Shown piece by piece: positions 26,175-26,653 of a stretch of DNA of 64,000 bases. Both the position numbers and the translations under genes were made by a program. A model generated the notes under the pieces. The model did not search any database and was not told the DNA's origin. It saw only the letters and a program-made list of their open reading frames with translations. Each line of letters starts with the position of its first letter. Positions within the stretch are counted from its first letter, which is position 1. Origin of the DNA: Sphyrna mokarran (Eukaryota); NCBI GenBank assembly GCA_024679065.1, contig JAGIQG010000027.1, positions 4,588,001 to 4,652,000 on the forward strand. Direction: 5' to 3'.

Positions 26175-26589
26175 CTGTGGTGGGACAGTTGTTATTTTTT
26201 TGCTTGGAGTTTTGCCGTGACTCTTTCATCCATGGGAATATCTGCTTGGTGAGGCTGGGTGTGGAGGTGTGGGAAGACTTGGGCAGAGACTTGCTGGTGC
26301 CTGGTTGTGTCGAGTTGTTGCTAGGATTTTGGGGAGGTGAGACAGGTGGAGGTTGGCGGTGCTCGGGGAGATTCGAACGCATGCAGCTCCCATTGATGTC
26401 TTTAGATTTGGGATGCGGAGCACTAGTGCCAGCTGGCTGAAGGGAACAGGCCGACCTCTGGTAATCACTTTCAACGTGAGAAGATGGTGGATAGGGTTCC
26501 TGCGCCACTTCATAGCTGAAACCATTTGCTCCCTGGTATGTGTATCCACCGAATAGAGTACAGTTGTCGTAGTACGTCGTTTTTTGCAT
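26175..26589 (-). CDS. HOXB3: Homeobox protein Hox-B3, first coding exon
   Basis: MQKTTYYDN...[10 protein letters not shown]...[14 protein letters not shown]; donor CAG|GTACAC at 26174. The exon probably extends 5' to an acceptor (ttcttctaaccttag), starting at 26705. Confidence 0.95.
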
Positions 26590-26653
26590 CTCGCAGTTTC
26601 CCAATATTTATTTCACAAACTGTCAGGGTCCTTGCACCCTTATCGAATAACAT
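26510..26653 (-). other. Overlapping out-of-frame upstream ORF of HoxB3 (47 aa, [19 protein letters not shown]...)
   Basis: ATG 64 nt upstream of the main ATG, open to a TGA at 26510-26512 inside the CDS. Confidence 0.5.

Follow-up and report, generated by a model that had tools for sequence, protein, structure and literature searches.

Why does the leader of a shark HoxB3 gene carry an out-of-frame ATG whose reading frame begins like the HoxD3 protein? The gene lies in a 64,000-nt stretch of the Sphyrna mokarran genome (hereafter, the window) that carries the shark HoxB cluster on its minus strand, to which the coordinates below refer unless indicated otherwise; its exon 1 is 98% identical to that of Scyliorhinus torazame HoxB3, which identifies the gene as HoxB3. 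The first coding exon spans 26175..26589 (donor read by eye) and the homeobox exon 24569..25338 (acceptor read by eye). The protein starts at an MQK ATG (26589) with G at −3. At 26653, 64 nt upstream and in the +1 frame, another ATG (the “uATG”) opens an overlapping upstream ORF (uORF) of 47 codons plus stop (26510..26653), whose peptide begins MLFDKG and whose stop lies 80 nt inside the HoxB3 CDS; translation of 26653-26510 reproduced this geometry as the first-pass annotation had given it. By leader comparison, the uATG (26653-26651) sits in a poor context (26650..26659), with GTGCCA before it and T after it, i.e., C at −3 and T at +4; a pyrimidine at −3 and no G at +4 define a poor context in PMC8892498, where such contexts can be as weak as 3% of optimal. 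Between the predicted splice acceptor (26705..26707; AG at 26707-26706, exon from 26705) and the main ATG, the uATG is the sole ATG. The hyperconserved 64-nt segment between the two starts (26590..26653) is homologous, by sequence comparison, to the in-frame extensions of amphioxus Hox3 (63 nt) and HoxD3 (48 nt), but its main frame holds two stops, so that an open extension of that type is absent.

The mere presence of an overlapping uORF in this leader is unremarkable by chance: when the 116-nt leader is shuffled, 43.6% of 20,000 permutations contain one out of frame. The likeness of its start to the N-termini of HoxD3 and amphioxus Hox3 is not chance. The first 11 uORF codons rank first among 2,376 ATG-started stretches of the window for each of four queries (shark D3, amphioxus, cheetah D3 and coelacanth D3), with scores of 44, 38, 32 and 40 versus 22, 24, 21 and 25 for the respective runners-up. 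The resemblance to the HOXD3 extension that had been noticed at first is thus borne out, and the extension aligns; the MLFEQG start of HOXD3, cited in the first-pass annotation, does lie in frame, 16 aa ahead of MQK. A search of Rfam with window positions 24000-46000 returned 0 matches, and a bacterial and archaeal genome collection gave 17 pattern matches and 0 relatives.

For comparison, we used leaders from one metagenome scan, in which 20 pattern matches led to 4 confirmed loci, assigned by best hits: bird HoxB3 (L001), teleost hoxa3 (L002), teleost hoxd3a (L003) and teleost hoxb3 (L004; its best hits carry no gene names, and the assignment comes from its likeness to named B3a proteins). 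A +1 uATG is present in all four A3/B3 DNA loci (−64, −64, −64, −67), including all three HoxB3 leaders compared (shark, bird, teleost). It lies at −64 in bird HoxB3 (83 codons) and teleost hoxa3 (47 codons, again with an 80-nt overlap) and at −67 in teleost hoxb3 (95 codons), with a pyrimidine or C at −3 in 4/4. Shark, bird and teleost B3 share the position, the +1 frame, the poor context and the overlap with teleost A3. The uATG frame runs without a stop up to the main ATG in all four loci and the main frame is stopped in three of them, although 20 open codons in so small a number of related loci are not significant. Residues ahead of MQK are absent from all 140 A3/B3 proteins of a hand-picked set, from which we omitted two isoforms without the first exon as well as four B3-type entries of teleosts whose main-frame read-ins are unrelated. 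In these four entries, a K-W pair implies an ATG or GTG at −67 (three) or −52 (dragonet), +1 by construction. Only two length changes are visible in the A/B leaders (−67, observed; −52, deduced from the dragonet protein), too few to show selection on frame.

A human counterpart is on record. The GENCODE Ribo-seq ORF catalogue, tabulated in PMC10032668, contains a HOXA3 upstream overlapping ORF, c7riboseqorf27, which like the window uORF has 47 codons, overlaps the CDS and keeps an equal register, and belongs to a direct paralogue. A by-eye ungapped alignment of the two gives 22/47 identical residues (8/21 in the leader part), and the alignment register implies an offset of −64. As tabulated, the entry is a catalogue row only, with neither a function nor a link to HoxB3, HoxD3 or amphioxus. 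Because the +1 frame recurs in L001, L002, L004 and this human HOXA3 ORF, it is no assembly error and is common to A3 and B3. A mouse Hoxa3 primer carries GTGCCAATGT, as do the compared leaders, and together with the teleost hoxa3 locus it confirms the GCCAATG that the first-pass annotation gave for HoxA3.

The homologous start is in frame elsewhere, as seen at the protein level. Of 12 amphioxus Hox3 cluster members, from four Branchiostoma species, 7 begin 21 residues ahead of MQK and the other 5 are annotated from MQK. Shark HoxD3 begins 16 residues ahead, and 12 of its first 14 residues equal those of amphioxus. Like the window uATG, these starts have a poor context and homologous first 11 codons; the human HOXD3 start is on the list of conserved poor-context starts of Ivanov et al. 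(PMC8892498). They differ in lying in frame at 48 nt (HoxD3) and 63 nt (amphioxus), whereas the window ATG is out of frame at 64 nt, with its two main-frame stops. The D3 extension is found in 2/2 sharks, 9/9 coelacanth and amphibian proteins and 13 of 17 amniote proteins, a count that leaves out an 18th match starting at MQK. Of 29 extensions, 28 have exactly 16 residues, even though residues 7-16 vary. It is gone from all 42 ray-finned D3 proteins. In the teleost hoxd3a locus (L003, 561-608), an in-frame ATG at −48 is followed by a stop after 12 codons, which leaves 9 nt to MQK; here the D3 extension was turned into a uORF a second time, independently.

A coelacanth “D3-like” gene and frog “Hox-D3-like” genes (P0130/P0296, P0387, P0391) form a separate, fourth group-3 clade in our protein tree (99/99), likely HoxC3 by elimination; the tree leaves cluster topology unresolved and was used only to show this fourth paralogue. 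One annotation of the coelacanth gene has 16 in-frame residues beginning VIIEK, which may have been shaped by projection from D3. As a MAFFT protein alignment misplaced short N-termini, anchored comparisons were used in its stead. Since amphioxus, D3 and probably C3 are in frame, the ancestor was likely in frame as well, and A3 and B3 have the frameshift in common. By parsimony, we regard this polarity as quite probable, with a net change of +1 nt in A/B and −15 nt in C/D, which matches the treatment of A/B and C/D as cluster pairs in PMC10972751. It rests on one outgroup genus known here from annotated proteins, 5 of whose 12 entries start at MQK.

On this evidence we favor, with some reserve, the interpretation that ATG 26653 is the ancestral chordate Hox3 upstream start, which would have been out of frame since the HoxA3/HoxB3 ancestor and would now act as a weak, leaky decoy start. 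The first-pass annotation had proposed that one ancestral group-3 ATG became an in-frame extension in D3 and an inhibitory uORF in B3. The homology of the ATG to the D3 start holds; the proposed direction of change and its restriction to B3 do not, as the in-frame state is the likely ancestor and A3 has the same +1 frame.

How would such a decoy work? Ribosomes probably do initiate at the shark uATG, by analogy with the human HOXA3 ORF, for which the catalogue entry documents initiation. Scanning rules then suggest, with slightly better than even confidence on our part, that most ribosomes leak past to MQK, that those starting upstream make no full-length HoxB3, and that low start-codon stringency lowers A3 and B3 output and only lengthens D3. 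A minority of scanning ribosomes would be diverted into a dead-end overlapping frame that ends 80 nt past MQK, and the diversion should grow as stringency falls, i.e., at a high eIF5:eIF1 ratio. In D3, the same upstream initiation would yield a longer protein and no loss. The expected effect on HoxB3 is modest, comparable to the 1.2- to 2.5-fold effects of the Hoxa1, a9 and a11 uORFs (PMC8892498). In mouse, the long Hoxb3 leader has several other uAUGs (PMC9456764), and these would dilute the effect of the −64 ATG.

Uses of poor-context uORFs in Hox leaders are already known. Ivanov et al. 2022 (PMC8892498) described conserved ones in Hoxa1, a9, a11 and ten other genes, predicted to be eIF1/eIF5-sensitive. 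The window uORF resembles them in having an AUG in a suboptimal context within a Hox leader, retained in the three HoxB3 leaders compared. It differs in size and layout, as the three they tested have 7-21 codons and this one has 47 and overlaps the CDS; an origin from a protein start is also not part of their description of the set. Their screen covered all 39 mouse Hox leaders, with a conservation cut-off of 90% of placental mammals, and Hoxa3 and Hoxb3 are absent from the resulting 13. In Dataset S3 of the same paper, HOXA3 and HOXD3 are inside the conservation-filtered gene set and HOXB3 is outside, which may bear on why HOXB3 was unscored. That list, and a human catalogue in which the tabulated HOXB3 row is for a different, young uORF (PMC10032668), both count against the decoy interpretation. 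So do the loss of the D3 extension in ray-finned fishes, its absence from three lamprey-clade proteins, and the reported harmlessness of exchanging Hoxa3 and Hoxd3. The mouse Hoxa3 TIE uORF from uAUG111 (Alghoul et al. 2021, PMC8172242) overlaps the CDS and excludes reinitiation, and its fusion to the reporter frame by a 1-nt deletion puts it at +1, too. It is a different start: uAUG111 has an optimal Kozak context and lies in a 170-nt TIE, 222 nt or more ahead of the CDS, in contrast to the poor context and −64 position here.

The main competitor of the decoy interpretation, possible though in our judgment clearly the lesser of the two, is that the ATG is a passenger of a DNA element. A proximal promoter-enhancer of CCAAT, E-box and CCAAT, bound by NF-Y and a USF-type bHLH factor with further factor sites downstream, would have frozen ATG, distance and frame through DNA spacing, and initiation would be tolerated noise. 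The parts are present. In a motif scan, a CCAAT box (26652..26656) overlaps the AT of the uATG and lies 10 nt downstream of an E-box, CACGTG (26667..26672, no strand assigned); across the E-box is a second, inverted CCAAT (26683..26687, plus strand), also seen in teleost hoxa3 and in the mouse Hoxa3 reverse primer. The E-box, like the acceptor AG/GT, is common to all five loci (the window and L001-L004), and the downstream CCAAT is intact in three of them. An equal arrangement occurs at HOXA9 (Akirtava et al. 2022, PMC9456764), where CACGTG is followed after ~10 nt, a spacing taken by eye from the primers, by GCCAATG, some 60 nt above the transcription start site (TSS). The ATG may thus be a passenger, and a HOXA9-type module may be the origin of the HoxB3 uATG. 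E-box and CCAAT pairs occur three times in the 64 kb, all at Hox 5′ ends, versus 0.23 expected. The mouse Hoxa3 region has promoter activity, which mutation of the E-box lowers (PMC9456764); a transcription start below the module and binding by bHLH factors and NF-Y are in part reported there for mouse Hoxa3.

Other observations fit a passenger poorly. The ATG is retained without an intact CCAAT in three cases, teleost B3 (L004), teleost D3 (L003) and human HOXD3 (UCAAUGU), and the G that turns CCAAT into an ATG follows just 38 of 131 CCAAT sites in the window. A paralogous HOXA3 ORF has been catalogued from Ribo-seq, and the D3 frame stays open at exactly 16 codons despite its variable residues. 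The idea that the ATG is a by-product of a conserved CCAAT box, raised at the outset as an alternative, is weakened by the three ATGs without CCAAT and kept alive by the equal module at HOXA9. The HOXA9 module also lies upstream of the TSS, whereas the window module lies downstream of a conserved splice acceptor and is likely transcribed as well. The annotated mouse Hoxb3 leader contains one CACGTG, beyond the first 400 of its 557 nt and hence in the last 157 nt (PMC9456764), so the E-box element is likely within mouse Hoxb3 mRNA. To judge by the sequences, a dual role in DNA and RNA for the E-box/CCAAT/ATG element would fit best, the 64 nt belonging to an element that probably has a role at the DNA level as well.

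The pattern of conservation bears on the same choice. Shark B3 and teleost A3 are identical at 56 of 64 positions in the leader segment versus 41 of 60 in the next 20 CDS codons. Codon changes in the uORF frame, as synonymous/non-synonymous, number 0/6 between shark B3 and teleost A3 and 2/14 and 2/12 in the comparisons with bird; the CDS control gives 5/9, 9/5 and 6/7. None of the frames of the leader segment has a synonymous bias, and the uORF frame lacks the third-position excess of the CDS. The 64 nt are constrained as nucleotides, not as peptide, and it is because of this nucleotide conservation that the uORF peptide resembles D3 and amphioxus. The lack of bias speaks for a passenger ATG, as does the lack of a conserved RNA fold: none of four leaders folds better than its shuffles (z −1.5 to +0.5).

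A passenger is also favored by a 9-mer within the segment, GAAATAAAT (26606..26614), which shark B3 and teleost A3 both carry at −25. Back-translated proteins are compatible with it at −26 in amphioxus and in 8 of 12 non-chordate Hox3-type N-termini, where it would lie at −24 or, in one of the eight, at −27; these amphioxus and invertebrate placements rest on proteins, not DNA, against a compatibility background of 0 in 11,736 positions. As it is found in three registers, a DNA or RNA motif is indicated. A placement of the extra A/B base in the last 7 nt was dropped for a +2/−1 model, amphioxus fitting GAAATAAAT in another register; both models come from back-translation.

Much less probable is a scheme in which the ancestral ATG was non-coding or out of frame, became an in-frame start when D3 recruited it, and HoxB3 translation is toggled by a proximal TSS below the ATG. 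It would account for the +1 state in two paralogue lineages and for the lamprey-clade proteins, all three of which begin at MQK, and it can draw on the promoter activity of the Hoxa3 region. The in-frame amphioxus start, with its 12/14 identity to shark D3, and the 16-codon in-frame homologue of the probable coelacanth C3 speak against its polarity. Its switch finds zero internal refTSS counts in the mouse Hoxb3 leader row (PMC9456764), and a TSS ~60 nt below the CCAAT, as at HOXA9, would leave a leader of less than 10 nt. Promoter-dependent skipping of the uATG, part of the initial proposal, has no direct support so far; the same row shows several other uAUGs. The last reading, a functional MLFDKG microprotein or stalling peptide, or else a +1 base from misassembly, is largely refuted and very improbable: despite the likeness to D3 and amphioxus and the “conserved” label of the HOXA3 ORF, the codon changes (0 versus 6; 2 versus 14) give no sign of purifying selection on amino acids, the human ORF is listed in PMC10032668 with PhyloCSF −436 and no MS study, uORF length varies (47, 47, 83 and 95 codons), and the +1 frame recurs in independent assemblies.

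The history may go deeper than chordates. Hox3 proteins of an annelid, an onychophoran, a phoronid, a bivalve, a nemertean and brachiopods have an N-terminal stretch of ~15 residues (30 in one protein) ahead of the MQK-type Met, in most cases with QNEINF. This ~15-residue QNEINF segment of protostomes starts from a different, nearer ATG (P0185, P0173, P0181, P0210, P0213, P0226, P0232, P0179). Scored against ten protostome-type segments, a likeness noticed before scoring, codons 14-20 of the uORF frame rank 79 (shark) and 1 (teleost A3) of 127,954 window 7-mers, and the same codons of bird and teleost B3 have no match to the ten. It is conceivable, and we put it forward tentatively, that the MQK Met was an internal Met of an ancestral bilaterian Hox3, that an indel after the first vertebrate genome duplication made a selected A/B decoy, and that C/D stayed in frame with a 15-nt deletion. 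A single conserved codon would in that case cost A3/B3 protein and give D3 a longer isoform when start-codon stringency drops. Two rare leader indels would then support the grouping ((A,B),(C,D)), alongside GAAATAAAT, kept from annelids and onychophorans to sharks in three registers.

The kind of uORF is already known and the HOXA3 paralogue is catalogued; new within the literature searched are the ATG in HoxB3, its identity with the D3/amphioxus start, the frameshift shared by A and B, and the older nucleotide motif. The search, which covered subscription journals thinly, turned up no paper that connects this ATG between paralogues or with amphioxus. Older phylogenetic-footprinting studies of Hox clusters may list the element as conserved non-coding sequence. 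The consulted portions of PMC3227721 and PMC8330917 have nothing on this element, and the supplements of PMC8172242 and PMC12048685 hold no leader sequence.

If the decoy interpretation is right, an ATG that is a decoy in A3/B3 and a productive start in D3 gives paralogues a means of differing in dosage through translation. Dosage carries weight because group-3 Hox proteins are reported to be interchangeable, a Hoxa3/Hoxd3 protein swap having been harmless (reviewed in PMC9136108). It would also add a case absent from the survey of conserved Hox uORFs, with a uORF that originated as a protein start recycled by frameshift. The E-box and ATG lie in the region under debate as a Hoxa3 “IRES”, and the leader indels provide a rare phylogenetic character for Hox clusters. 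Were the ATG a passenger, there would still be a nucleotide element of great age at the Hox3 start.

Several further features of the window accompany this locus. At the intron end, leader comparison revealed the conserved motifs TATTCATGTCA and AAGATGGAT (26749..26785), the former in the window, L001, L004 and partly L003, the latter in the window, L001, L002 and L004; presumably they resemble MEIS and YY1 sites. ATGs inside both would matter in unspliced leaders. A strong candidate splice donor at ~29610, ~2.9 kb upstream of the 26705 acceptor, may close an upstream non-coding exon. Met70 (SCMR; 26380-26382), the next in-frame ATG past the uORF stop, is invariant in 10/10 aligned group-3 proteins, and reinitiation there would yield a truncated HoxB3 that retains the homeodomain. 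Elsewhere in the cluster, HoxB1 (10106-10127 and 10065) has an E-box and CCAAT upstream and a uATG at −86 in the +2 frame, and HoxB4 has a uATG at −113.
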